A stretch of DNA of 64,000 nt from Cyanobacteriota bacterium (GTDB lineage Bacteria; Cyanobacteriota; Cyanobacteriia; Cyanobacteriales; Nostocaceae). Location: NCBI GenBank assembly GCA_046045965.1, contig JBJOKS010000001.1:183118-247117 (forward strand). The letters are read 5' to 3'. The position numbers were made by a program, and so were the translations under genes. Below the pieces are notes generated by a model. It did not search any database, was not told the origin of the DNA, and saw only the letters and a program-made list of their open reading frames with translations. This document shows positions 2,507 through 19,874 of this stretch, piece after piece. Each line of letters starts with the position of its first letter. The first letter of the stretch is position 1.

Positions 2507-2872
2507 ATGATGATGATGATGATGACTGAATCTATGACTACCGAAATGCAAACTTGCATGAATGCTTGCATGGAATGTCATAAAATTTGCTTGGAAACCA
2601 TGACTTACTGCATGAGTAAAGGCGGTAGGTACATGGATATGGGGATGATGAGCATCATGCGTGACTGCTCAGAAATGTGCATGATGTGTACGAATATGAT
2701 GATGAGTGGTTCCGAGTTTATGGATCGTACTTGTATGTTGTGTGCGGAAATGTGCGATCGCTGTGCCGCAGCTTGTGAAACAATCAGTGATGATAGCAAG
2801 ATGCTGGATTGTGCCGCTGCTTGTCGCAGATGTGCAGAAACTTGCAGATCCATGCAAATGGTGCGTGCTTAA
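2507..2872 (+). CDS. Four-helix-bundle copper storage protein (Csp3/DUF326-like), very Met-rich
   Basis: Repeated CxxxCxxC motifs (CMNACMECHKIC, CAEMCDRCAAAC, CAAACRRCAETC); AGGAG RBS upstream. Confidence 0.85.
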   Translation: MMMMMMTESMTTEMQTCMNACMECHKICLETMTYCMSKGGRYMDMGMMSIMRDCSEMCMMCTNMMMSGSEFMDRTCMLCAEMCDRCAAACETISDDSKMLDCAAACRRCAETCRSMQMVRA

Positions 2873-3987: not shown

Positions 3988-5577
3988 TTAAAGAATATTT
4001 AGAATCCTCCTTAATAAGGCTTGATCTTCTGGTTTAGGTTTAAGACGACCATTTTCTACATCTCGAATCCAACTTTGACTTTTACCTGTCAGCTTTGCTA
4101 ATTCCCTTTGGGAAATGTTGATACTTTTGCGGGCTTGTAAAACCTGTTCAGCTAATAAATCATCTGGGTTTTTGAGAACTCTTTTATTCCTCACATTACG
4201 CCGCTTTTTTTTCTCAGCTTCTGAACTTAACTGTTCCCATTCTGGAGGTAGTTCAAAAGATAAAATCCGGGCATTCATCAGCATATTCCATTTACCACGG
4301 GGTCCGCTATCTGTGAGGCGATGATCACCACCACCGTCATTAATCCAAAATTCCAAAGCCTCATCTGGATCTTCGGGAATATCAACTAATTTAGCCCACA
4401 AAGGTTGGATTTCTGTTGGGTAGGTAACAGGGTCAAAAATTGCCTTGACTCCATAATGATTGAGAACTTCCAAATCATTTTCAAATGTTCGCAATAAACG
4501 TTTACGTTCATCCCGTAATCTGGAAGCTAGGTTAATTTTTTCCTCGCCATAAGCAACACGCAGTAAAGTAGGAACAGTGATGCGTTGCTCTCTACCCATT
4601 TTGGTTTTAAAAAGTAACCATAACATCAATCTTACTGCACCTTCATGTTGCTGCCAAAGACTCATAACTGTAGTTAACAGCGTTTTTGGTAGACTACCAT
4701 ATTGATAGAAACCAGTACGCTCTTTACAGCCTTGTTTATTTAAGAAATGCTGCGACCAAATACCGGCTTTGACTTTAAATGTCAACCCGATCAGATATTT
4801 ACACCCTTGGTTATCTTCTTGAAAGTGATGCTGAATATCTGTTAAATTCCACAAACGACTTTCTTGCACAGAAAAGCCGGGAACTTTACCCCGTTGCGGC
4901 CAGTCAATGGAAACAACAAGTGAGCAAGCTTGTTGAACGATGTTCTTGATTAAACATAGCTTGGCGATTTTATTGAGGTCTTTGCGTTTTTCTAACCCCA
5001 AGTATTTTTCAATTTGGCGTTCATCAATCGCAAATTCTTGTTCCCACGGTTGATCTAAGGCTGTAGCATGGGCAGCAAAAATCAGATGAATACAAGCAGC
5101 ACGAATATCAAGATTTTCAATTGCTTGTACATTTTGAGCTAGGTTGCTAACTTGAAATGAGTCCTGGATGTGAAAAGAAATTGTACCCCGACCTTGATTA
5201 ACTTGTCGGCTATAGTGTAAATTACCTTCTGCATCTGTTTCCCAATTTAATGATTTACGTTGTGCTAGTAGGTTGCAAGCTTCCCAGATAACTATAGCCG
5301 AAGCAAAGGGGTGATTTTTGCCATTAGAAAACAAATCAGGGCTGGTAGGTTCTCGCGCTTCAACTTTGCATCTGCCTTTTTTTGCTTGCCAAGGTATAGG
5401 AGACTTTGTTGGACAAGCAATTACACATTGCGGTTCTGGATAGTAACCCTCGCAATTGTTACAAAGACAAGGATCTATCCAATATTCGTTATTTTCGATT
5501 TTGATTGCACCCGTAGGACATTGGGGGCGGCAGTTATTACATCCATCGCAATTTTTGTTAGGAATTGTATAAGGCAT
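3988..5577 (-). CDS. cnfR: CnfR/PatB, transcriptional activator of nif genes (N-terminal 2x[4Fe-4S], C-terminal XRE-type HTH)
   Basis: MPYTIP start; CDGCNNCRPQCP and CNNCEG..C...CP ferredoxin motifs; C-terminal SQRELAKLTGKSQSWIRDVENG HTH; linked to fdxB-cox. Start placed at ATG 5577 rather than the track's 5661. Confidence 0.92.
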   Translation of the reverse strand: MPYTIPNKNCDGCNNCRPQCPTGAIKIENNEYWIDPCLCNNCEGYYPEPQCVIACPTKSPIPWQAKKGRCKVEAREPTSPDLFSNGKNHPFASAIVIWEACNLLAQRKSLNWETDAEGNLHYSRQVNQGRGTISFHIQDSFQVSNLAQNVQAIENLDIRAACIHLIFAAHATALDQPWEQEFAIDERQIEKYLGLEKRKDLNKIAKLCLIKNIVQQACSLVVSIDWPQRGKVPGFSVQESRLWNLTDIQHHFQEDNQGCKYLIGLTFKVKAGIWSQHFLNKQGCKERTGFYQYGSLPKTLLTTVMSLWQQHEGAVRLMLWLLFKTKMGREQRITVPTLLRVAYGEEKINLASRLRDERKRLLRTFENDLEVLNHYGVKAIFDPVTYPTEIQPLWAKLVDIPEDPDEALEFWINDGGGDHRLTDSGPRGKWNMLMNARILSFELPPEWEQLSSEAEKKKRRNVRNKRVLKNPDDLLAEQVLQARKSINISQRELAKLTGKSQSWIRDVENGRLKPKPEDQALLRRILNIL

Positions 5578-5955
5578 AAGGCTTTTTCCTACTCCAATTG
5601 CTGAGATGTTTGGCTCAAGTCTCCCCTCCATGTCTCTTCTTGATTCATAACTTGCTACCAAATTATCTCCATGACCAGAAAAGTGATTCTCGCCTCACTA
5701 ATTACTGACATCCAAGGATGTTATTTTGTATCCAATGGGAAGCTATTTAAGTCCTTGAAACTCAGGCTTCATTGCTTCTTCATTAACTATACATTTCATA
5801 AAGATTTCAATAAGAGTGTTCATCATGAGCTTGGGATGATTTCTTAATCTTTGCCTAAATTTTTAGGCTCGTTATCGCTTATTTTTGACATCAAAATATC
5901 AGCAAATTGTTTTTGATTAACATCTTGAATTATTCGGAGTAGGGGAAATTTAACT

Positions 5956-6349: not shown

Positions 6350-6724
6350 TTAAAAAACTGGTGTTTTACTCCGCAAAGCTTTCAGGCTTTCAGCTTGCTT
6401 GATTACACGTTCAGTAATGCGATCGCACACTAACTCACAAACTTCAAAAATCATCGGATCAGCAATCTCATAAAAGGCACTTGTACCTTTGGTCTGACGA
6501 GATAAAATTCCTGCTTGAGTCAACACTTTCAGATGCTTGGATAAATTTGCTTGCCCCAAACCAGTCACTTCCGCAATTTCCATCACATTCATTGCACCTG
6601 ACTTCAGACAAGTCAAAATCTGTAACCGACTCGCCTCTGATAGCACTTTGAAATAGTCAGCAACCGCCAAAAGAATGGCTGGATCAGCATCGGATGGCTT
6701 CGTTTTTGGCATAGAACAACTCAA
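6350..6724 (-). CDS. ArsR/SmtB family transcriptional regulator (Cys in helix 2 and CxxxC near the C-terminus)
   Basis: FKVLSEASRLQIL, QANLSKHLKVL..AGIL winged-HTH pattern; start may be ATG 6712. Confidence 0.9.
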   Translation of the reverse strand: MSCSMPKTKPSDADPAILLAVADYFKVLSEASRLQILTCLKSGAMNVMEIAEVTGLGQANLSKHLKVLTQAGILSRQTKGTSAFYEIADPMIFEVCELVCDRITERVIKQAESLKALRSKTPVF

Positions 6725-6746
6725 TCCTTAGTACAATAGTTATTTC

Positions 6747-6762
6747 ATAACTAATTAGCATT
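6747..6762 (-). promoter_or_regulatory. Putative operator (AATGCT-AATT-AGTTAT on minus) overlapping a TATAAT -10 for the ArsR gene
   Basis: Plus-strand ATAACTAATTAGCATT; minus-strand TATAAT at 6765-6760. Confidence 0.5.
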
Positions 6763-6815
6763 ATAACTAACTGTTAATTCACTGCGGTGAAAAAAAGTCA
6801 AACTGATCTGCTAAG

Positions 6816-6831
6816 ATTACTGTAAAGTTAT
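6816..6831 (+). promoter_or_regulatory. Putative operator ATTACT-GTAA-AGTTAT overlapping an extended -10 (TGcTAAGAT) of hetL
   Basis: One mismatch to the perfect palindrome at 8963-8978; 49 nt upstream of the hetL ATG. Confidence 0.55.
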
Positions 6832-6879
6832 TTAGTTAATAAGTCGATAACTGTCTTATTTACAAAATTGTAAAAATTT

Positions 6880-7593
6880 ATGGATGTAAAAGAAATTTTA
6901 AACCGTTATCAGGCAGGAGAGCGCAGCTTTCAGCGCATCAATCTACAAGAAGCAGAGCTAACAAATGCTAACCTCACAGGAGCAGATTTTAGTTACGCTG
7001 ACTTACGTCAAACACGACTTGGTAAAAGTAACTTCAGCCAAGCTTGTATGCGCGAAGCAGACCTAAGTGAAGCCATCCTGTGGGGAACAGACTTGAGTTC
7101 CGCAGACTTGTATCGTGCCATTTTACGTGAGGCTGATTTGACTGGTGCAAAGCTTATTAAGACCCAACTAAATGAAGCTAACTTAATCAGAACAAGTTTA
7201 TGTGGTGCTAATTTACATGGTGCAGAACTCTCTCGTGTGCTGCTAATTCAAGCAGATTTACGTCCCAGTTCTGATCAGCGCACAGACTTAGGATATGCGA
7301 TTTTGACAGGAGCAGATTTGAGTTACGCTGACCTAAGAACCGCTTCACTGCACCATGCTAATTTAGATCATGCTAAGTTATGTCGAGCTAATTTAGGTCG
7401 AATCATTCAATGGGGAGATGTTACCACAGATTTGACTGGAGCTAGTTTACAAGGTGCGGATTTAAGTTATGCAAATCTCACTCATGCAATTTTGCGAAAA
7501 GCAAATTTACAAGGAGCAGATTTAACAGGAACAATTCTTGATGATGCTGATTTAGAAGGGGCAATTATGCCTGATGGAACAGTAGCGAGTTGA
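6880..7593 (+). CDS. hetL: HetL pentapeptide-repeat protein (heterocyst differentiation)
   Basis: 237 aa of A(D/N)Lxx repeats with the two HetL-type loop insertions (LRPSSDQRTDLG; GRIIQWGD) and an IMPDG end, matching my recollection of Nostoc PCC 7120 HetL. Confidence 0.85.
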   Translation: MDVKEILNRYQAGERSFQRINLQEAELTNANLTGADFSYADLRQTRLGKSNFSQACMREADLSEAILWGTDLSSADLYRAILREADLTGAKLIKTQLNEANLIRTSLCGANLHGAELSRVLLIQADLRPSSDQRTDLGYAILTGADLSYADLRTASLHHANLDHAKLCRANLGRIIQWGDVTTDLTGASLQGADLSYANLTHAILRKANLQGADLTGTILDDADLEGAIMPDGTVAS

Positions 7594-7805
7594 CATATTA
7601 CAGAGGACAAAGAGTTTAAGCAATCTTCCTTTCTTCCTTTGCTCCTTTGCGCCTTTGCTCCTTAGCGCCTACCCTTCGGGATCTCCTGACGGAGATTGCG
7701 CGAAATCATTTCTTCTAAAAAAACGAAGTTGGGTTAAAAACAACCCAACCCAAATCATTTAACTTACCTTTGGGGGTGAAAGTCCCCGGCTTCTACAAGC
7801 AGCGG

Positions 7806-7839
7806 GTTTTGCGTCGGGGTAAAATCCCCGTTGCAAAAC
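7806..7839. terminator. Hairpin between convergent hetL and acsF (repeat-derived, possible bidirectional terminator)
   Basis: gttttgc-gt-cgggg-taaaat-ccccg-tt-gcaaaac. Confidence 0.45.
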
Positions 7840-7876
7840 GTAATTCTACATTCTAAATTCTCAATTCTTCATTCTT

Positions 7877-8932
7877 TTAACGCACAGTTCCCCGTAAAGC
7901 TTCCGTATCAATCGGTTTAATTAAATAAACAAGTAGAAGATTCCAAACAATTGCTATTATTAAAGGCAATTTACGGATAAATTTCACTACTTTAGGTTGA
8001 GAACTACGCTCAATTGCTGAGATTTGCAAATTGTAATCAGAGCAGTTTTGCAGACGTGGGAAAAACTGAGGATGTTCAGTATTTAACATCACCGGAAAAG
8101 CGCGTCCCGCAGTTTCATTAGTGTTGCGAACCACTTCGTGATCAAATTCTGTGGGTTCAAGTCCCAGTAAATGGTAGAAACTACCTCGTTCGTGAACCGT
8201 CAAAGTATGGGTAGCAAATACCGATAACAAGAAAAACCGACTCCAGAGTTTTGATTTCCAATTATTCCAGAGTTTGGGTTGAGAACGTAACAAAGCCTTG
8301 AATATATCCCCATGTCGGTTTTCGTCCTGACACCAACTCTCAAATTTACGGAAAATTGGGTAAAACTGATGCTCTGGATGCTTTTGTAAATGGTGATAAA
8401 TAATGATGTAGCGCCAATAACCGATCTTTTCTGATAAGTAAACAGTATAAAGCACCCATTCCAGCGGGAAAAACGTATAGGTGCGGGTTTTCGTAACTTC
8501 ACCTAAGTCCAGGGAAAGTTTAAAATCACCCATCGCTTTATTCAAAAATCCCGCATGACGAGCTTCATCACGCGCCATCAGTTGAAATATTTCCGCTAAT
8601 AAAGGATTACGTTGTTTCAGCTTCCGTGATAATTCTTTAAATAGCAAAAACCCCGAAAACTCAGAAATACAAGAGCGTTCCAAATACTCAATAAAGGATT
8701 TACGTGCTTCACCATCAATGTGTTCCCAGGACCGTTCAAACTCTTCATCCCGCACGAAGTGATGGCGGTTGTAGTCTGCTTGCATTTCTGCCAACATTGC
8801 TTGTAGTTCTGTTTCTTGGGCAGAAAGATCCAAATTAGCAGCGGTTTCAAAGTCTGTGGTGTAAAACCGGGGAGTAAGTACGGTTTCTTGACTTGGGGTT
8901 TTAATTCCAGGCTTGGGTAGGGTATTAACCAT
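7877..8932 (-). CDS. acsF: Mg-protoporphyrin IX monomethyl ester oxidative cyclase (AcsF/ChlA)
   Basis: LTPRFYTTDF, SEFSGFLL, RDEARHAGF, YLSEKIGYWRY, QDENRHGD di-iron motifs. Confidence 0.95.
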   Translation of the reverse strand: MVNTLPKPGIKTPSQETVLTPRFYTTDFETAANLDLSAQETELQAMLAEMQADYNRHHFVRDEEFERSWEHIDGEARKSFIEYLERSCISEFSGFLLFKELSRKLKQRNPLLAEIFQLMARDEARHAGFLNKAMGDFKLSLDLGEVTKTRTYTFFPLEWVLYTVYLSEKIGYWRYIIIYHHLQKHPEHQFYPIFRKFESWCQDENRHGDIFKALLRSQPKLWNNWKSKLWSRFFLLSVFATHTLTVHERGSFYHLLGLEPTEFDHEVVRNTNETAGRAFPVMLNTEHPQFFPRLQNCSDYNLQISAIERSSQPKVVKFIRKLPLIIAIVWNLLLVYLIKPIDTEALRGTVR

Positions 8933-8962
8933 GATTCCTCTATTTATTTGTTTAATACTTAC

Positions 8963-8978
8963 ATAACTAAAAAGTTAT
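8963..8978. promoter_or_regulatory. Perfect palindrome ATAACT-AAAA-AGTTAT just downstream of a TATAGT -10 for acsF
   Basis: cATAACTaaaaAGTTATg; minus-strand TATAGT at 8988-8983. Confidence 0.6.
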
Positions 8979-9111
8979 GATAACTATAGTTCTTTGACTA
9001 GATTCTGTAGCTAAAGCTTTACAAACTGATACAAAAATCCTAAAAATTACCAGCTTTTTCAAAGGTTCTGACTTGTTAAGTTTTGTATATTATTAATGGT
9101 TTTTTAGCTTA

Positions 9112-9127
9112 ATAGCTATAGAGTTAT
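9112..9127 (+). promoter_or_regulatory. Putative operator ATAGCT-ATAG-AGTTAT upstream of hemF
   Basis: One mismatch to the 8963 palindrome; 46 nt before the hemF ATG. Confidence 0.55.
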
Positions 9128-9172
9128 GAATTGAAGTAAAAACTCTGCGTAAGAGATGAAGAGGTATTCAGC

Positions 9173-10231
9173 ATGAACCGTCATTCAGAGAATCATCTGC
9201 AAGAATTCACAAGTCAAACCATAGTGCTTGCACCTCCAGTTAACGTAGTCAACACAGCACCTGTTAATTCTCGCCAAAGAGCGAAGCAGTTGATGTTAGA
9301 CATACAGGATCAAATTTGTGCTGGTTTAGAACAACTTGATGGAGAAGCACGTTTTCGGGAAGACCTTTGGGAACGAGCAGAAGGTGGTCAAGGACGCACC
9401 CGTGTAATTCGGGAAGGACGGATATTTGAACAAGGTGGAGTTAATTTTTCAGAAGTGTGGGGAGATAGTTTACCTGCGGCAATTTTAACCCAACGTCCAG
9501 AAGCGGCCGGACATGACTTTTTTGTGACTGGTACTTCAATGGTGTTGCATCCTCGTAGTCCTTATATTCCAACGGTACACCTTAACTATCGTTATTTTGA
9601 AGCAGGTCCAATTTGGTGGTTTGGTGGTGGTGCTGATTTAACGCCATACTATCCTTTTGTTGAAGATGCTGTTCATTTTCATCAAACTTTAAAAGCTGCT
9701 TGTGATGCTTCCCATCCAGAATATTATCCGGCGTTTAAACGCTGGTGTGATGAATACTTTTATTTAAGGCATCGTCAAGAACAACGGGGTATTGGCGGTA
9801 TATTTTTTGATTATCAAGATGCTAGTGGTAAACTTTACGTAGGTTCTCAACCAGATAGTCAAGCTGCACTCTACAGCCAGCAAGTTGGATCTGTATCTCG
9901 TAATTGGGAAGATATGTTTGCGTTTGTACAACGTTGTGGTGAAGCATTTTTACCTGCTTATTTACCTATTGCGGAAAGACGACAAAATATAGAATATAGC
10001 GATCGCCAGCGTCAATTTCAATTATACCGTCGCGGTCGTTACGTTGAATTTAACCTAGTGTACGACCGGGGAACGGTGTTTGGGTTGCAAACCAATGGCC
10101 GGACAGAATCTATTTTAATGTCTTTACCACCGCTAACACGCTGGGAATATGGTTATCAACCAGAACCAGGAAGTCCCGAAGCTCAACTTACGGAAATCTT
10201 TCTTCAGCCTCAAGATTGGGTAAATAGGTAA
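9173..10231 (+). CDS. hemF: Oxygen-dependent coproporphyrinogen III oxidase
   Basis: [49 protein letters not shown]. Confidence 0.95.
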
Positions 10232-10238
10232 TAGGTAA

Positions 10239-11135
10239 TTGGTAATTTCATCTATTACCAATAAAAATTTTGTGAGGATTGTAACATTGAATTTGTCATT
10301 AAATCAGCCAGACAACCATCAACCTCTGCGTCTTCATTGGGTGTCTGTGGTATTTTTCGGTACTATTCATGGACTAGCATTGCTGTCACCCTGGTTTTTT
10401 TCTTGGGGTGCTGTGGGTGTAACTTTGTTTCTGCACTGGCTGTTTGGCAGTATTGGAGTTTGTTTAGGTTATCATCGTTTGTTGAGTCATCGTAGTTTTA
10501 AAGTACCCAAGTGGTTAGAGTATGCGATCGCTATTTTAGGTGCATTATCTATTCAAGGTGGTCCGATTTTTTGGGTTGCTGGCCATCGCTTGCATCATGC
10601 TTACACCGAAGACGAAAACAAAGATCCCTATTCTGCTCGTAAAGGTTTTTGGTGGAGTCATATCCTCTGGATTTTTTATCCCCGTTCCGAGTTCTTTGAT
10701 TATGAGTGTTACCAGAAATTTGCACCTGATTTAGCGCGAGATCCTTTTTACATTTGGCTAAATCGTTATTTCCTGCTGCTACAAATTCCCGTTGCATTGC
10801 TACTGTATGCCCTGGGAGGCTGGTCATTTGTGATTTATGGTGTGTTTTTGAGGTCTGTGATTCTTTGGCACACCACCTGGCTGATTAACTCAGTAACCCA
10901 TATGTGGGGATATCGTACCTTTGAAAGTGATGATAATTCCCGAAATCTTTGGTGGGCTGCTATTCTTACCTACGGTGAAGGTTGGCACAACAATCATCAT
11001 GCTTATCCTCATGTAGCTAAATGTGGTTGGCGTTGGTGGGAAATTGATATTACTTGGTGGGTGATTGGATTATTGAAAACATTAGGTTTGGCGAAAAATG
11101 TTAACCTCCCACCTCATAATATCGTTTCACATTGA
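10239..11135 (+). CDS. desC: Delta-9-type acyl-lipid desaturase (DesC family)
   Basis: His boxes GYHRLLSH, HRLHH, GEGWHNNHH; exact start uncertain. Confidence 0.85.
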   Translation: MVISSITNKNFVRIVTLNLSLNQPDNHQPLRLHWVSVVFFGTIHGLALLSPWFFSWGAVGVTLFLHWLFGSIGVCLGYHRLLSHRSFKVPKWLEYAIAILGALSIQGGPIFWVAGHRLHHAYTEDENKDPYSARKGFWWSHILWIFYPRSEFFDYECYQKFAPDLARDPFYIWLNRYFLLLQIPVALLLYALGGWSFVIYGVFLRSVILWHTTWLINSVTHMWGYRTFESDDNSRNLWWAAILTYGEGWHNNHHAYPHVAKCGWRWWEIDITWWVIGLLKTLGLAKNVNLPPHNIVSH

Positions 11136-11431: not shown

Positions 11432-11725
11432 ATGGCAACATTAACAGGAGTAAGATTTGGCGGTGGGACTTGGACACCTAAATTTGCTACAGAAATTGAC
11501 AAGGATAAATGTATCGGTTGTGGCAGATGTATTAAAGTATGTGGTCACAATGTTTTAGGTTTGATGGCCTTGAATGAAGAAGGTGAATTTGTTGAAGACG
11601 AAGATGATGAAGAAATTGAACGCAAAGTGATGGTAGTTGCTCATCCAGAAAACTGTATTGGTTGTGAAGCTTGTTCTCGGATTTGTCCTAAAAATTGTTA
11701 TTCCCATGCAACATTAGACAGCTAA
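11432..11725 (+). CDS. fdxB: Ferredoxin III, nif-specific (2x[4Fe-4S])
   Basis: [20 protein letters not shown] and [12 protein letters not shown], acidic linker. Confidence 0.9.
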
Positions 11726-12216
11726 AACTTTTGGGAATTAACTCAAGTCAGTAAATGAGAAGGAGACATTGTTTAAATCCGTAGTTCATCCTAGCCAGGT
11801 AATTAGAGGGGAATACTCAATCCTTACTTAAATTAGTTAAAACAGTTATTTAAAAATTAGTTAAAAATTAGTTAAAAAGTTCATAATAAACAAAAATATA
11901 AATTAGAAATTGTTATTACTTAACCAAATTGAAAAACAAGATTTCCGATTTCTTTGAGATGTCGGGAATTTGATTATTTCAATTTTCACCGGAGGAAAAT
12001 ATAATTTGTAATATTTCCGGGGAGAGATATGAAAAAATATGGAAGTTTCGCGATTTTTGATTAGGTGCAAGTTAAAACGGTAATAAGTGAAAATCAAAAA
12101 TGTAAGAATTCAGGAGTCAGGATTCAGGAGTTAGGAGAACGATAAATTATGACCTGTTCCCTGTTCCCTGTTCCCTGTTAAGAGTTCCCATTGATAACTG
12201 ATAGAGAACAGGTAGT

Positions 12217-13170
12217 ATGCAAAAAGTTCCTGTGTCGTTATGGACGCTGTTAGCGGGGATGATAATTTCCCCTATCAGTATTTGGATTGGTCAAAATCAT
12301 CATTTATTGCCTGTACAAGCATCGCAACAAGCACCTTTGGTAGACGGATTATTTAATATCATGTTTACCATTGCGATCGCTCTTTTCTTAGTAGTTGAAG
12401 GTACAATTCTCATTTTCCTATTTATCTATCGTCGCCGTCCAGGAGACAATAGTGATGGTACACCCGTAGAAGGTAATTTAGCCTTAGAAATCTTTTGGAC
12501 AGCAGTACCCAGCGTCATTGTAATTGTTTTGGGTATTTACAGCGTCAATATTTATAACCAAATGGGAGGTTTAGAACCAGGTAGTCATCCTCATGGCCAT
12601 GTGGCGATGGCTGCTAGTATGAATGATGGTTCTCAATCTTTAGCTGTTCCTAATATTGGTATTGGTGGTAGTCCTCAAACTCAAAATAAACCAGCAGATT
12701 TGGTAGTTGATGTTAAAGGGATTCAGTTTGCTTGGTTATTTAACTATCCCGAAACAGGTATTGCTGCTGGTGAATTACACGTTCCTGTTGGCGCTGATGT
12801 GCAGTTGAATTTATCCGCAGATGATGTAATTCATTCTTTCTGGGTTCCTCAATTTCGCCTCAAACAAGATGCTATTCCTGGTGTCCCCACAGAACTCAGA
12901 TTTGTCGCTACAAAACCTGGTACATATCCCATAGTTTGTGCAGAATTGTGTGGTGGTTATCACGGTTCCATGCGAACACAGGTAATTGTTCACAGCCAAG
13001 AAGATTTTGATAACTGGTTAACAGAAAATCAGTTAGCACAAAAGCAAGGACAGCCTCAAATTGTAGCAGTAAATCCTGCTAATTTATCAACTTCTGATTT
13101 TCTCATTCCCTATGTTAAGGATATGGGAATAAGTGCAGAGAATATTCAGTCATTAGTTATTAGTCATTAG
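12217..13170 (+). CDS. coxB: Cytochrome c oxidase subunit II (heterocyst cox2-type by synteny)
   Basis: LEIFWT, DVIHSFWVP, CAELCGGYHGSM CuA motif. Confidence 0.93.
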   Translation: MQKVPVSLWTLLAGMIISPISIWIGQNHHLLPVQASQQAPLVDGLFNIMFTIAIALFLVVEGTILIFLFIYRRRPGDNSDGTPVEGNLALEIFWTAVPSVIVIVLGIYSVNIYNQMGGLEPGSHPHGHVAMAASMNDGSQSLAVPNIGIGGSPQTQNKPADLVVDVKGIQFAWLFNYPETGIAAGELHVPVGADVQLNLSADDVIHSFWVPQFRLKQDAIPGVPTELRFVATKPGTYPIVCAELCGGYHGSMRTQVIVHSQEDFDNWLTENQLAQKQGQPQIVAVNPANLSTSDFLIPYVKDMGISAENIQSLVISH

Positions 13171-13248
13171 TCATTAGTCTTGGTTATTGGTTATTAGTAA
13201 ATGATAACCAAAAAAATCCAAAATCTAAAATCTAAAATCCACAATCGA

Positions 13249-14931
13249 ATGACACAAATAGAATTTCCACCAAATACACCACCAGAAGATAGTCAACAAC
13301 AAACTGTAATGGTGTCTCACACTCAACATCACCAAGCATGGAAATTGAAGGATTACTTCACCTTTAATATTGATCACAAAGTAATTGGGATTCAATATTT
13401 AGTGACGGCCTTTGTATTTTATTTGATTGGTGGGTTGATGGCGATCGCTATCCGCACCGAATTAGCTACACCAGATTCTGATTTTCTTGATCCAAATCTG
13501 TATAACGCTTTCATGACAAATCATGGAACAATCATGATTTTTTTATGGATCGTTCCCAGTGCAATTGGGGGATTTGGTAATTATCTAGTTCCCTTAATGG
13601 TGGGTGCTAGAGATATGGCATTTCCTAAATTAAATGCGATCGCCTTTTGGTTAAACCCACCCGCAGGTTTACTATTATTAGGTAGTTTTATTTTTGGTGG
13701 TTCTCAGTCAGGTTGGACAGCTTACCCACCTCTAAGTTTAATTACCGCCAACAACGCTCAAACAATGTGGATTTTAGCCATTGTTTTAGTAGGAACTTCC
13801 TCAATTTTAGGTTCACTTAACTTTGTCATCACCATTTTGATGATGAAAGTTCCTAGCATGAAATGGGATCAAGTTCCCCTATTTTGCTGGGCAATTTTAG
13901 CAACCTCCATCCTCGCACTTTTATCTACCCCAGTATTAGCAGCAGGTTTAATCTTGCTGTTATTTGATATTAACTTTGGCACTTCTTTCTTCAAACCAGA
14001 TGCAGGTGGTAACGTCGTTATTTACCAACATTTATTCTGGTTTTATTCCCACCCAGCGGTTTATTTAATGATTCTGCCGATTTTCGGGATCATGTCCGAA
14101 GTAATTCCCACCCATGCACGAAAACCTATTTTTGGTTATCGAGCGATCGCTTATTCCAGTGTCGCTATTTGCGTCGTTGGTTTATTCGTCTGGGTACACC
14201 ATATGTTCACCAGTGGAACACCCGGATGGATGCGGATGTTCTTCACTATTTCCACATTAATAGTAGCCGTTCCCACAGGTGTCAAAATCTTCGGTTGGGT
14301 AGCAACACTTTGGGGTGGAAAAATTCGTTTTACCACCGCCATGTTATTTGCAATTGGCTTACTTTCCATGTTCGTCATGGGTGGTTTAAGCGGCGTAACA
14401 ATGGGAACCGCTCCCTTTGATGTTCACGTCCACGATACATATTATGTAGTCGCACATTTCCACTACGTTTTATTTGGTGGTTCTGTATTTGGTATTTACG
14501 CAGGTATCTATCATTGGTTCCCCAAAATTACAGGCAGAATGATGAACGAAACATGGGGAAGAGTTCACTTTGTTCTGACATTAATTGGGACTAACTTAAC
14601 ATTTTTACCCATGCACAAACTCGGTTTACAAGGAATGCCTCGCCGAGTTGCCATGTATGACCCCCAATTTATCAGCTTAAACCAGCTTTGCACCATTGGC
14701 GCATTCATTTTGGGTATTTCTGTAATTCCCTTCGCTTACAACGCCTTTAAAAGCTGGACAGAAGGCGAATTTGCAGGTGATAATCCTTGGGAAAGTTTAA
14801 CTTTAGAATGGACAACTAGCTCCCCTCCAATTATTGAAAACTGGGAAGTTTTACCTGTCGTCACTCATGGACCCTATGACTATGGCCATAACCATGATGA
14901 ATCTTCATCGGTGACAGAAGCAATAAGTTAA
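13249..14931 (+). CDS. coxA: Cytochrome c oxidase subunit I
   Basis: DHKVIGIQY, FWFYSHPAVY (type A2), WVHHMF, AHFHYV; start moved from 13201 because the first 16 codons are repeat-derived. Confidence 0.95.
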   Translation: MTQIEFPPNTPPEDSQQQTVMVSHTQHHQAWKLKDYFTFNIDHKVIGIQYLVTAFVFYLIGGLMAIAIRTELATPDSDFLDPNLYNAFMTNHGTIMIFLWIVPSAIGGFGNYLVPLMVGARDMAFPKLNAIAFWLNPPAGLLLLGSFIFGGSQSGWTAYPPLSLITANNAQTMWILAIVLVGTSSILGSLNFVITILMMKVPSMKWDQVPLFCWAILATSILALLSTPVLAAGLILLLFDINFGTSFFKPDAGGNVVIYQHLFWFYSHPAVYLMILPIFGIMSEVIPTHARKPIFGYRAIAYSSVAICVVGLFVWVHHMFTSGTPGWMRMFFTISTLIVAVPTGVKIFGWVATLWGGKIRFTTAMLFAIGLLSMFVMGGLSGVTMGTAPFDVHVHDTYYVVAHFHYVLFGGSVFGIYAGIYHWFPKITGRMMNETWGRVHFVLTLIGTNLTFLPMHKLGLQGMPRRVAMYDPQFISLNQLCTIGAFILGISVIPFAYNAFKSWTEGEFAGDNPWESLTLEWTTSSPPIIENWEVLPVVTHGPYDYGHNHDESSSVTEAIS

Positions 14932-14943
14932 ACCGCAGAAATT

Positions 14944-15044
14944 GTAGGTTGGGTTAAGCAACAGCGCAACCCAACAAACCACCCAAAATATTGGGTTTAC
15001 TTCTGTTCTCAAATGTTGGGTTTCCTCACATCAACCCAACCTAC
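14944..15044. repeat. REP-like inverted doublet (GTAGGTTGGGTT...AACCCAACCTAC)
   Basis: Terminal inverted repeats with internal palindromes; same family at 17708-17788, degenerate at ~35411-35488 and ~7728. Confidence 0.75.
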
Positions 15045-15065
15045 ATTTATTACTAGGAAAATAGC

Positions 15066-15662
15066 ATGACTGCAATTACAACCAGTGAACATCACGAAGC
15101 TGGACACGAACATCATCCAGATTTAAGAGTTTGGGGACTATTAACTTTCTTAGTTTCTGAATCATTAATGTTTGGTGGATTTTTCGCTACCTACATATTT
15201 TTTAAAGGTACTACCGCAGTTTGGCCACCAGAAGGAACAGAAGTAGAATTATTTATTCCCACAATTAACACCATCATTCTCGTTTCTAGTAGTTTTGTCA
15301 TTCACTTAGGTGATATGGCAATTAAAAGAAATAGTGTTGGTTGGATGCGGTTTTGGTATTTTATTACCGCAGTTATGGGTGCTGTATTCCTAGCCGGTCA
15401 GGTTTATGAATACCAGAATTTAGGCTATGGTTTAACTACCAACGTCTTCGCTAATTGCTTTTATTTAATGACTGGTTTCCACGGGTTGCACGTATTTGTG
15501 GGACTGTTATTAATTTTAGGTGTTTTGTGGCGTTCTTTCCGTCGTAATCATTATTCTGCTGTTAAACATACAGGCATCGAAATGGCGGAAATTTACTGGC
15601 ACTTTGTTGATATAATCTGGATCATTCTCTTCACTTTGGTTTACATTCTGAACGCATTTTAA
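15066..15662 (+). CDS. coxC: Cytochrome c oxidase subunit III
   Basis: FLVSE, TGFHGLHV, YWHFVD. Confidence 0.93.
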   Translation: MTAITTSEHHEAGHEHHPDLRVWGLLTFLVSESLMFGGFFATYIFFKGTTAVWPPEGTEVELFIPTINTIILVSSSFVIHLGDMAIKRNSVGWMRFWYFITAVMGAVFLAGQVYEYQNLGYGLTTNVFANCFYLMTGFHGLHVFVGLLLILGVLWRSFRRNHYSAVKHTGIEMAEIYWHFVDIIWIILFTLVYILNAF

Positions 15663-17885: not shown

Positions 17886-18371
17886 ATGCAAACTTCCCAA
17901 AACAAATTCTCCTGGTTTGACGTATCCGATGAAGTTAAAGAACTATTGATATTAGCCGCCAAAACCTGGGAAAACACAGAAGAATCAGAAAAATATATGC
18001 AACAAGCATTAGCTAAAACAGAAGATAACACAGATGTTTTAGTAGCAGCTTACAGATATTTTTATTACAAAAATAATTATTGTTTAGCACTGACAACAGC
18101 AGAAAAAATAATTGCTAAAATTAAAGAAGTCGAGAAATTACCCGATAACTGGGAAGAACTTAAACCCATCTTAGTTCAGCGACAACAAGAAACCAACATC
18201 AGATTGTTCTTAAATGCTTATGCTGCTTCAGGTTTAGTATTAGCTAAACTAGGAAAGTTAGAAAAAGCTAAAGAAATCAGTACCCAAATTAAAGGTATTG
18301 ATGATAAAAATGATTTTGGTGCTGGTATTCTTCTGGATATTTTAACACGTCCCCCAGAAGAAGATGATTAA
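17886..18371 (+). CDS. Conserved helical/TPR-like protein of cyanobacterial nif-cox2 clusters
   Basis: All-helical, AAYRYFYY, C-terminal FGA motif; position downstream of coxC. Confidence 0.7.
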   Translation: MQTSQNKFSWFDVSDEVKELLILAAKTWENTEESEKYMQQALAKTEDNTDVLVAAYRYFYYKNNYCLALTTAEKIIAKIKEVEKLPDNWEELKPILVQRQQETNIRLFLNAYAASGLVLAKLGKLEKAKEISTQIKGIDDKNDFGAGILLDILTRPPEEDD

Positions 18372-18488
18372 TAACTCGTAATTCGTAATTATCAATACAT
18401 TTATTAAAGAGTATATATTGGGATTTATTGAATCTTGGAAACTGTGTTAATATTGGAGAAATCACTAATCACCAATCATAGAATCATC

Positions 18489-18659
18489 ATGAATAATTGG
18501 TTATCTACCCGAATTGCTGATTATACTTTCTCAGTATCTACTAATAATAACATTATCCTACCAGGACTTCCTGAATCTCCTATGGCTCCTGTAACTAAAA
18601 TGCCTCAAGCAAATCCTCCCATGCTATTTTTACCTCAAACTTCACAGTTTAGATTATAG
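18489..18659 (+). CDS. Small Pro-rich hypothetical protein (56 aa)
   Basis: ATG 18489; ends 10 nt before the cupin gene in the same orientation. Confidence 0.4.
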   Translation: MNNWLSTRIADYTFSVSTNNNIILPGLPESPMAPVTKMPQANPPMLFLPQTSQFRL

Positions 18660-18669
18660 TATATAAATT

Positions 18670-19281
18670 ATGCAAGGAAAGGATTGGTTTGTCGCTGAAA
18701 ATGGAAAGATTAAACTCTGTAAATCAGCGAGAGAATGGGATTTATTGCGTGATAATTATCGCCTATATCGGTTTCTAACTGAGATAGAAGATGTTCTCAA
18801 TAATGTTGAGGATGAATCAACTTGTCTTTCAGAAATTAGAATGTTAGTGAGACGATTGATTATTAATTCCTATTGGGTACAAAGCCAATTTTTAGAACCA
18901 GATCCAAAAACAGGAAACTCGGTTTTATTGTTATACGATGAATTAGGATTTCCCTTAACTGTGCAAACAGTGACATTTGCACCAGGAACAACTTCTAATA
19001 TTCATAATCATGGAACATGGGGAATAGTCGCAATATTAAAAGGTCAGGAAAAAAATACATTTTGGCGACGAAATCCCACCCCAGAATATCCTGATAAAAT
19101 TGAAAAAGTGGAAGAAATTGATTTATATCCAGGAGACTTAATTAGTTTTAACCCAAAGACAATACATCAAGTTCAAGCAGTGGGAGAAGAACCAACAGTT
19201 ACATTTAATATTTATGGAGAAACAGACCCCAAAACCAGATTTGAATTTGATGTAATTAACCATATTGCTAAAAAATTTTAA
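18670..19281 (+). CDS. Cupin / cysteine-dioxygenase-like protein
   Basis: IHNHGTWG and IHQV metal-binding cupin motifs. Confidence 0.85.
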   Translation: MQGKDWFVAENGKIKLCKSAREWDLLRDNYRLYRFLTEIEDVLNNVEDESTCLSEIRMLVRRLIINSYWVQSQFLEPDPKTGNSVLLLYDELGFPLTVQTVTFAPGTTSNIHNHGTWGIVAILKGQEKNTFWRRNPTPEYPDKIEKVEEIDLYPGDLISFNPKTIHQVQAVGEEPTVTFNIYGETDPKTRFEFDVINHIAKKF

Positions 19282-19400
19282 ATGTAGTTGTAAAAAACAT
19301 CAATAACAGATTATTGTGTTAAATATAATAATATCTGCGTTCATCTGCGTTGATCCGCGTTTAATTATTTTCGATCTAGAAATTAATCGGAGAAATAACA

Positions 19401-19874
19401 ATGGCCAGAGTAATTTTCTATGAAAAACCAGGCTGTAAAAACAACACCAGACAAAAAGTATTACTCACAGCAGCAGGTCATCAAGTGATAGCATATAGCT
19501 TATTAACAGAACCGTGGACAGTGGAAAGATTAAAATCATTTTTTGGCGATCGCCCCGTCATTGAATGGTTTAACAAAGCCGCACCTCGGATAAAATCTGG
19601 AGAGGTGAACCCTGAAAACATCGACGCTGAAACCGCATTAGTAATGATGCTCAGAGATCCCTTATTAATTCGTCGTCCTTTATTGGAAGTAGGAGATCAA
19701 CGGGAAATAGGCTTTGATACCGAGAAAATCGAGGCATGGATAGGCTTAAAACCCGTGGATGACTCTTTTAAAGAAATGAGTGAAAATCTCATGCAGCAGG
19801 ACCTTCAAGGCTGCGCTCATGGCAAAAATCACGAACACCACCATCATGGTGAAGGTGGTTGTAAACATCATTAA
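19401..19874 (+). CDS. ArsC/Spx-family nitrogenase-associated protein with a His-rich C-terminal tail
   Basis: FYEKPGCKNN..QK, PLLIRRPLL; tail CAHGKNHEHHHHGEGGCKHH. Confidence 0.85.
   Translation: MARVIFYEKPGCKNNTRQKVLLTAAGHQVIAYSLLTEPWTVERLKSFFGDRPVIEWFNKAAPRIKSGEVNPENIDAETALVMMLRDPLLIRRPLLEVGDQREIGFDTEKIEAWIGLKPVDDSFKEMSENLMQQDLQGCAHGKNHEHHHHGEGGCKHH

Follow-up and report, generated by a model that had tools for sequence, protein, structure and literature searches.

In Synechocystis 6803, Synechococcus 7002 and Leptolyngbya boryana, the low-oxygen genes chlAII/acsF2, ho2, hemN, desF and psbA1 (encoding the D1 variant D1') are targets of ChlR (PMC4500134), a 4Fe-4S activator of the MarR/HxlR type. 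The review of that system names as unknown the regulation of tetrapyrrole synthesis in heterocysts, the action of the Anabaena ChlR, which is classed as a 1-Cys form of unclear function, and the control that operates in strains without chlR (PMC4500134). Among ArsR-family proteins, BigR and SqrR sense reactive sulfur through a pair of Cys residues in helix 2 and helix 5 (PMC8960804), and RexT (Alr1867) of Nostoc PCC 7120 appears as an ArsR entry where the redox regulators of cyanobacteria were reviewed in 2026 (PMC13421787). Grim and Dick (2016) counted 15 genomes in which sqr lies near low-O2 psbA and 27 cases in which it neighbours an arsR-like gene, and they suggested linked regulation (PMC5061849). 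Here we describe a 64,000-nucleotide stretch of DNA (hereafter, the window) from a cyanobacterium of the family Nostocaceae (assembly GCA_046045965.1, contig JBJOKS010000001.1, positions 183,118–247,117; source genome of 5.29 Mb, 38% GC and 92% completeness), in which an arsR gene lies beside hetL and extra copies of acsF, hemF and desC, and one palindrome recurs at four promoters. Judged from its sequence, the palindrome is a real, conserved operator, and it is probable that the adjacent Cys-bearing ArsR/SmtB protein runs a microoxic gene module through it in place of ChlR.

The four 16-mers, together with four candidate -10 boxes, were found exactly where an earlier reading of the same DNA (the original prediction) had placed them (Table 1). 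When mismatches are counted against ATAACT-N4-AGTTAT, the copy at position 8963 is the only perfect one in the genome; 34 copies have one mismatch, two of them here, and 3 of the 35 genomic sites with at most one mismatch thus fall in the two intergenic regions of this locus. A genome-wide matrix scan had been proposed; with a matrix built from 91 distinct sites, all taken from other genomes, the window sites ranked 1, 2, 3, and 34. A chance origin of the cluster had also been named for control: against the four observed sites of at least 13 bits, 3000 dinucleotide shuffles of the two regions gave none in 2947 cases, one in 53, and never two. Among 1925 intergenic regions of 100–400 nt, only these two contain two matrix hits each. 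The proposed gene identities were likewise upheld, with HetL passing the NF047416 threshold and with matches to the expected families for AcsF, HemF, the fatty acid desaturase, and ArsR/SmtB. The acsF, hemF and desC genes of the window are extra copies, the genome holding three, two and two of them in total.

Table 1. Coordinates in the window of the arsR–desC2 genes, the predicted operators and the candidate promoter boxes.
Feature	Position	Strand	Remarks
arsR	6350..6709	-	ArsR/SmtB winged-helix protein, predicted repressor, group A; NF033788 79.4 vs cut-off 55, PF01022 40.1 vs 22
Weak predicted operator before arsR	6747..6762		3 mismatches, 13.6 bits, genome rank 34; 53 nt upstream of arsR
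Candidate -10 of arsR, TATAAT	6765-6760	-	overlapped by the weak operator 6747..6762
Candidate extended -10 of hetL, TGcTAAGAT	6809..6817	+	TG-TAAAAT-like box kept before hetL/NMO sites of relatives
Predicted operator before hetL	6816..6831		1 mismatch, 17.8 bits, genome rank 2
hetL	6880..7593	+	pentapeptide-repeat protein; NF047416 348.6 bits vs cut-off 260
acsF2	7877..8932	-	chlAII-type O2-dependent Mg-protoporphyrin monomethyl ester cyclase; TIGR02029, paralogue comparison, tree
Perfect predicted operator before acsF2	8963..8978		0 mismatches, genome rank 1; 46 nt upstream, counted from far edge
Candidate -10 of acsF2, TAACTT	8977-8972	-	inside the perfect operator, 17 nt after TAGTCA
Candidate -35 of acsF2, TAGTCA	8995..9000	-	inferred from sequence and column conservation
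Candidate -10 of hemF2, TAGCTT	9105..9110	+	similar box immediately before the site in orthologues
Predicted operator before hemF2-desC2	9112..9127		1 mismatch, 17.5 bits, genome rank 3
hemF2	9173..10231	+	second O2-dependent coproporphyrinogen oxidase; NF003727; paralogue at contig C76
desC2	10239..11135	+	desC2/desF-type delta-9 desaturase; PF00487; start codon uncertain; 49% to the other genomic desC

Conservation of the palindrome was assessed in 80 loci, the best among 192 that encode ArsR relatives. In the 250 nt preceding each gene, matches to the consensus derived from the window were counted, one mismatch at most being allowed; genes having less than 40 nt of upstream DNA or lying at contig edges were left out, and divergent genes share their sites. 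The genes recurring in the fetched flanks of these loci are hetL (49 loci), acsF (31), NMO (21), psbA (17), hemF (15), and desC (9), followed by PhyH (6), ho (5), and hemN (4); at least one of hetL, acsF, hemF, psbA, ho, hemN, and NMO is near arsR in 64 of the 80 loci. Phylogenetic footprinting, which the original prediction had called for, recovered the consensus in 24 of 30 acsF, 13 of 17 psbA, 11 of 15 hemF, and 12 of 20 NMO promoters, at lower frequency in front of hetL (8/37) and arsR (22/80), and in 7 of 636 other genes taken as background, while none of the ten orthologous desC genes has a site of its own by the same rule. The spacing is fixed, being 46 nt before acsF in most orthologues, ~53 nt before arsR, and 27–42 nt before NMO. 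Additional site-bearing genes in relatives are a petC2-like Rieske gene, sqr (with a site in 3 of the 80 group A loci), and a UPF0176-rhodanese gene, which we take to be TrhO-like. In six loci (L052, L056, L064, L076, L080, and L114), arsR is preceded by a site though the fetched flank contains no target. Counts made with the matrix on the 80 training loci are partly circular, unlike the consensus footprint, the genome ranking, and the held-out psbA test described below; a degenerate-pattern search of five genomes was too noisy for use.

All 17 arsR-adjacent psbA genes encode Ala80, Leu158, and Ala286, the signature residues of D1'. Gly80Ala is a described substitution of D1' (PMC2776144). In a held-out panel from separate genomes, 57 loci were used, of which all but L176 and L256 contributed, and 56 distinct promoters were obtained; a site of at least 10 bits was present before 16 of 16 psbA genes with Ala80 and before 1 of 40 with Gly80, and this lone gene carries Leu158 and Ala286. 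Many D1' promoters have the site directly after TTGACA. The same arrangement is found at the D1' psbA of the source genome (Ala80, Ile158, and Ala286; contig C8:144804-145950), which lies on another contig than the window and is divergent from a petC2-like Rieske gene and two rhodanese genes; its site, ranking 14 in the genome, is included in the held-out panel.

The position of the predicted operators relative to the candidate promoter boxes is repressor-like, as originally proposed: they overlap candidate -10 or -35 boxes, all of which were assigned solely from conservation. In a sigma-70 scan all four proposed promoters went undetected, and the 17 matches obtained were no excess over the 12.4 ± 3.2 of shuffled sequences. 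For acsF2, the overlap of operator and -10 box was retained, but the box first chosen, TATAGT, was replaced by TAACTT as the more likely one, because the columns of the latter are 95–100% conserved among 20 promoters and those of the former 35–95%. The start codon of arsR is most likely ATG 6709 rather than TTG 6724, since its homologues begin with MPKTK and the operator then lies 53 nt upstream, as it does in relatives. The site so placed over a candidate -10 box agrees at the sequence level with the autoregulation that had been suggested, and a counterpart of at least 10 bits is found 38–60 nt before arsR in 47 of the 80 loci, on which the matrix was partly trained. The hemF2 and desC2 genes are likely to form one transcript. 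Contigs from two metatranscriptome runs span arsR, hetL, acsF, and the hemF–desC junction; being uninformative on start sites, strand, level, and co-transcription, they were not used.

A 4-Cys ChlR appears to be absent from this lineage, as far as its genomes were searched. With a 4-Cys ChlR-like protein encoded beside acsF in L148 (named by its context and Cys pattern) as the query, no ChlR/HxlR match was obtained in the source genome at its 92% completeness. An intact 4-Cys ChlR was present in 1 of 41 panel genomes, in addition to one degraded copy, and the best matches viewed elsewhere were 1-Cys paralogues. Across the class, 49 of 301 genomes encode a 4-Cys ChlR, none of them in the family of the window, and none was found in 25 plus 12 further genomes of that family. 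The published ChlR motif, TTMCC-N3/4-GGWAA (PMC13421787), did not occur upstream of any target class in the 80-locus footprint. Conversely, 0 of 14 chlR-adjacent acsF2 promoters reached 10 bits with the operator matrix (maximum, 4.2), and the operator at 10 bits or more was found in 24 of 60 acsF promoters, none of which had both motifs, exclusivity being judged here by the adjacency of the chlR gene. The published pattern fits few of the ChlR-adjacent promoters, and a box TTTAC..GTAAC..GGTAAC was derived from them, so that counts made with it are circular. These promoters (L351-L367 and L148) have in common TTTAC-N4/5-GTAAC followed by GGTAAC, which is broader than the published consensus. 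Two genomes (G328 and G233) are split: their acsF2 has the ChlR-associated box, and D1' adjoins a group A arsR, the site there scoring 19 bits.

A second clade of acsF2 in the Nostocaceae, represented in the source genome at contig C8 ~53120, divergent from ho2-hemN, and in L142, L146, L147, L153, L158, and L160, has a decayed operator. Its conserved upstream box, TCAATAATTTAACTGA, is a possible site of another, perhaps heterocyst-specific, activator. Another chlAII, all1880, is induced by microoxia and in heterocysts (bioRxiv 2020.04.22.054668), and may belong to this clade.

The ArsR homologues fall into three groups in a quick tree of 112 columns, which gives good support to groups B and C and moderate support (88) to group A, containing the window gene, and from which no order of events was deduced. 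The neighbours of group B arsR are pdo, rhodanese, tauE, yeeE, and sqr, and those of group C are efp-accB. Group B has a close variant of the operator, ATTACT-N4-AGTAAT, before its own gene and pdo/yeeE/sqr, also in genomes with ChlR beside acsF2; no upstream region of group C reaches 11 bits. The source genome encodes groups A and B and lacks group C, so that a group C ArsR was rejected as the binder here. Within the family, 7 of the 11 genomes that encode a group A ArsR, and none of the 14 that do not, have window-type acsF (at least 82% identity). The motif thus travels with ArsR groups A and B and apart from ChlR, consistent with the proposal that an ArsR is the likely binder of the shared operator. 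The group C arsR genes beside efp-accB (L028 and L235-L255) are themselves widespread and strongly conserved, and encode a CxxxC protein with an additional helix-3 Cys. In the Trichormus azollae ArsR (L114:8001-8357) several otherwise conserved residues are replaced, Cys34 by Phe among them, and none of the targets lies nearby, which fits symbiont decay.

The group A protein is characterized by three cysteines (the residue that follows the initiator Met being number 1), Cys91 being present in 73 of 73 orthologues, Cys95 in 72, and Cys34 in 67. A structure model (pLDDT, 85) places Cys34 in helix 2 and Cys91-x3-Cys95 in helix 5; group A has no helix-3 Cys. Searches of ESM Atlas, PDB, and Foldseek returned only generic ArsR/SmtB/NmtR/CzrA relatives, and the window ArsR scores 36.1 bits with the NCBIfam BigR model NF040642, below the cut-off of 155. 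The description of the protein as loosely BigR/SqrR-like is fair with regard to the near-invariant C-terminal CxxxC, and less so for the helix-2 Cys, which is off by one residue and not invariant. The partner Cys of SqrR, presumably at residue 107, would fall about three residues after Cys95, the alignment stopping at SqrR residue 103. If this ArsR is the regulator, the leading though still tentative candidate for its inducer is persulfide (sulfane sulfur) as a proxy of hypoxia; it is favored by the precedent of the BigR/SqrR Cys pair, by a locus in which D1', pdo-rhod-tauE, sqr, and hetL occur together with sites (G028 locus L256), and by the induction of pdo-cluster genes by polysulfide in Synechococcus 7002 (PMC12466478). 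Direct sensing of O2 by thiols or an Fe-S cluster, via two CxxxC motifs at the dimer interface, is somewhat less favored but a serious possibility, and other signals are unlikely.

The following mechanism may be envisaged. ArsR/SmtB proteins are dimers, and in oxic cells the ArsR dimer would bind the palindrome, thereby repressing its own gene, acsF2, hemF2-desC2, hetL, and the distant D1' psbA. When O2 falls, O2-dependent oxidation of sulfide would stall and persulfide would build up, as described for BigR/SqrR; the conserved cysteines would then react, ArsR would let go of the operator, and the spare, presumably low-oxygen genes would be turned on. In PCC 7120, psbA0 is induced by low O2 (PMC2776144). 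The set of isoforms found at the ArsR loci, namely extra acsF, hemF, and desC copies here and D1', ho, and hemN neighbors in relatives, is best read as a putative module of D1', acsF2, hemF2, desC2, ho2, petC2, and sqr. The microoxic regulon parallel to that of ChlR suspected in the original prediction is thus supported, and its scope appears larger than was seen from the window, since relatives add D1' psbA, petC2, sqr, NMO, and ho2/hemN. A far wider view, speculative and on balance doubtful, is that most cyanobacteria with low-oxygen isoforms, heterocyst formers included, use a persulfide-reading CxxxC ArsR and not ChlR, that sulfide detoxification, D1' exchange, and microoxic pigments make up one regulon, and that HetL is an old member of it that later came to shield HetR, low O2 or sulfide biasing heterocyst fate.

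Several observations weigh against control of the module by the adjacent ArsR. Neither motif is found in 23 of the 60 acsF promoters, including most of those of the second-clade Nostocaceae acsF2. Four draft genomes of 190–850 contigs and 92–99% completeness (G116, G176, G033, and G032) carry the site upstream of acsF2, D1', or both, although the only ArsR found in them is of group C, apart from a distant B-like ArsR in G176. Cys34 is substituted in 6 of the 73 orthologues, and it lies one residue after the helix-2 Cys of SqrR (PDB entries 6o8k and 6o8l), whose counterpart in the alignment is the group B Cys. Because of the kinship among relatives, the counts reflect few evolutionary events, and part of the conservation could be that of promoter sequence, the left half-site containing the -10 box. 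Finally, nitrogen step-down raises hetL expression in PCC 7120 3.5-fold. This response depends on HetR, but hetL lacks a HetR box, and an intermediate factor was suggested (PMC7476756); ArsR control explains it only indirectly.

It is conceivable, though improbable, that a genuine operator is recognized by another protein, either an ArsR paralogue of group B or C or some unrelated regulator, and that the adjacent arsR is not the main controller. The recognition helix is near-identical between groups A and B, and group B sites score well on the same matrix; the four drafts above also point in this direction. The own group B arsR of the source genome (contig C28:23027) is divergent from pdo-rhodanese-tauE with a variant operator ranking 44, and cross-talk with group A is possible. 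Nevertheless, group A arsR is beside targets in 64 of the 80 loci, the group B genes' own sites are mostly ATTACT/ATACTA as compared with ATAACT at most acsF and hemF sites of group A loci, and group C is excluded here by its absence from the genome and by its low-scoring upstream regions.

By its position hetL is a regulon target: it lies directly behind a site in 10 of the 49 arsR loci containing it, and in another 26 it follows a site-bearing gene within a run of co-oriented genes. The original prediction had gone further and proposed that ArsR couples heterocyst commitment, via hetL, to microoxic pigment and lipid synthesis. This would accord with the protection of HetR from PatS by HetL, shown for All3740, and with the unnamed intermediate factor in hetL induction (PMC7476756), as well as with the location of the block between cnfR/patB and fdxB-cox. 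As the main function, however, such a coupling is unlikely. No HetR match was obtained in four genomes (95–100% complete) having a HetL-family gene beside acsF2, with the source genome as the positive control, and HetR was present in five other genomes checked; eight of eight HetL homologues tested from outside the family pass the NF047416 cut-off. HetL equivalogs thus placed beside acsF2 belong to lineages that form no heterocysts; they also occur in named Leptolyngbya/Coleofasciculaceae records (L120 and L125), and in one locus (L377) the adjacent regulator is ChlR. Moreover, cnfR is near arsR in only 1 of the 80 loci, indicating that the placement between cnfR/patB and fdxB-cox is lineage-specific, and group A ArsR is absent from 14 of 25 genomes of the family. 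In one mutant, hemF2 and alr1358 were 17.9- and 4.2-fold up while nif genes fell (PMC7065334). In PCC 7120, hetL was reported to be very weakly expressed and its deletion to give no differentiation phenotype (PMC7476756). A microoxic repressor would fit this pattern, and nothing in the data calls for a role in commitment. It is likely that hetL is a member of the microoxic module and that its role predates HetR. If so, the near-silence and dispensability of hetL in aerated cultures would be explained, and a HetR-independent low-O2 role is suggested for HetL. The PCC 7120 genes are close by locus number, hetL being all3740 (PMC7476756) and the D1' gene alr3742 (PMC2776144). The next locus number, all3743, is listed as a transcriptional regulator. 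We assume that it is a group A ArsR.

A conventional metal or arsenite sensor, co-regulating genes for metal-cofactor enzymes according to metal supply, is very unlikely. AcsF, DesC, and D1 are metal-dependent, a CxxxC motif is capable of binding metal, and the closest solved relatives are the generic ArsR/SmtB/NmtR/CzrA proteins noted above. On the other hand, the helix-5 His positions of SmtB align to Pro/Met/Arg in the window ArsR, so that the Asp/His ligand set of SmtB/CzrA-type helix-5 sensors is not matched, group A lacks a helix-3 Cys, and neither a metal exporter nor a metallothionein is among the labelled recurrent neighbours. Induction by low O2 has been described for D1' (PMC2776144). 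That the palindrome is merely a conserved promoter element or an AT-rich chance occurrence is hardly tenable, for although its left half-site contains a TAnnnT box and the genome has 38% GC, both half-sites are kept at non-homologous promoters in varied registers (between -35 and -10, on -10, or after -10), the shuffle and genome-wide controls do not reproduce it, and standard psbA promoters are without the site.

The gene order of the region is cnfR/patB - arsR - hetL - acsF - hemF - desC - fdxB - coxBAC. The window also contains cnfR/patB, nif ferredoxin III, the cox operon, a cupin, and a nitrogenase-associated gene (3988-5661, 11432-15662, and 17886-19874), which is presumably the usual heterocyst cluster; in this lineage the arsR block seems to have entered the cluster between cnfR and fdxB. 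The single relative of the same arrangement that was compared (L051) has an intact block, and in a same-genus relative (G001, L031:9485-11200) deletions have left fragments of hetL, acsF, hemF, and desC with arsR and the operator intact. An open reading frame of 121 residues, rich in Cys and Met (2507-2872, plus strand), has no Pfam or NCBIfam match and in our view resembles four-helix copper storage proteins.

No description of this operator or regulon was found in a full-text literature search; subscription journals and RegPrecise, outside its scope, could hold part of it. The available portion of Grim and Dick (2016) contains no mention of a motif, an ArsR subfamily, acsF, chlR, or hetL (PMC5061849). 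The window ArsR shares with BigR/SqrR the fold and the Cys residues of helices 2 and 5, and its sister paralogues lie beside pdo, rhodanese, tauE, yeeE, and sqr. It differs from them in having CxxxC where they have, presumably, a single C-terminal helix-5 Cys, and in the helix-2 Cys, which coincides with the SqrR position only in group B and lies one residue off in group A. Its predicted targets are isoforms of oxygenic photosynthesis, whereas sulfide-detoxification genes are predicted targets of group B, appear in group A as sqr in the three loci mentioned, and are lacking among the targets in this window. RexT, a non-metal thiol-switch ArsR repressor from the same group of organisms, resembles the regulator predicted here, but has vicinal Cys40–Cys41, the motif ATTCG-N15-CGAAT, and trxA2 as its target (PMC13421787), none of which is found here. 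The likeness to ChlR lies in the predicted targets, which are almost the same, and the regulator itself is of an unrelated family, a predicted repressor instead of an activator, associated with a palindrome different from the ChlR motif. Beyond the ChlR targets, the predicted ArsR regulon adds hemF2, hetL, NMO, petC2, sqr, and trhO-like genes, and it thereby provides a candidate regulator, operator, and set of targets for the gap stated in the ChlR review.

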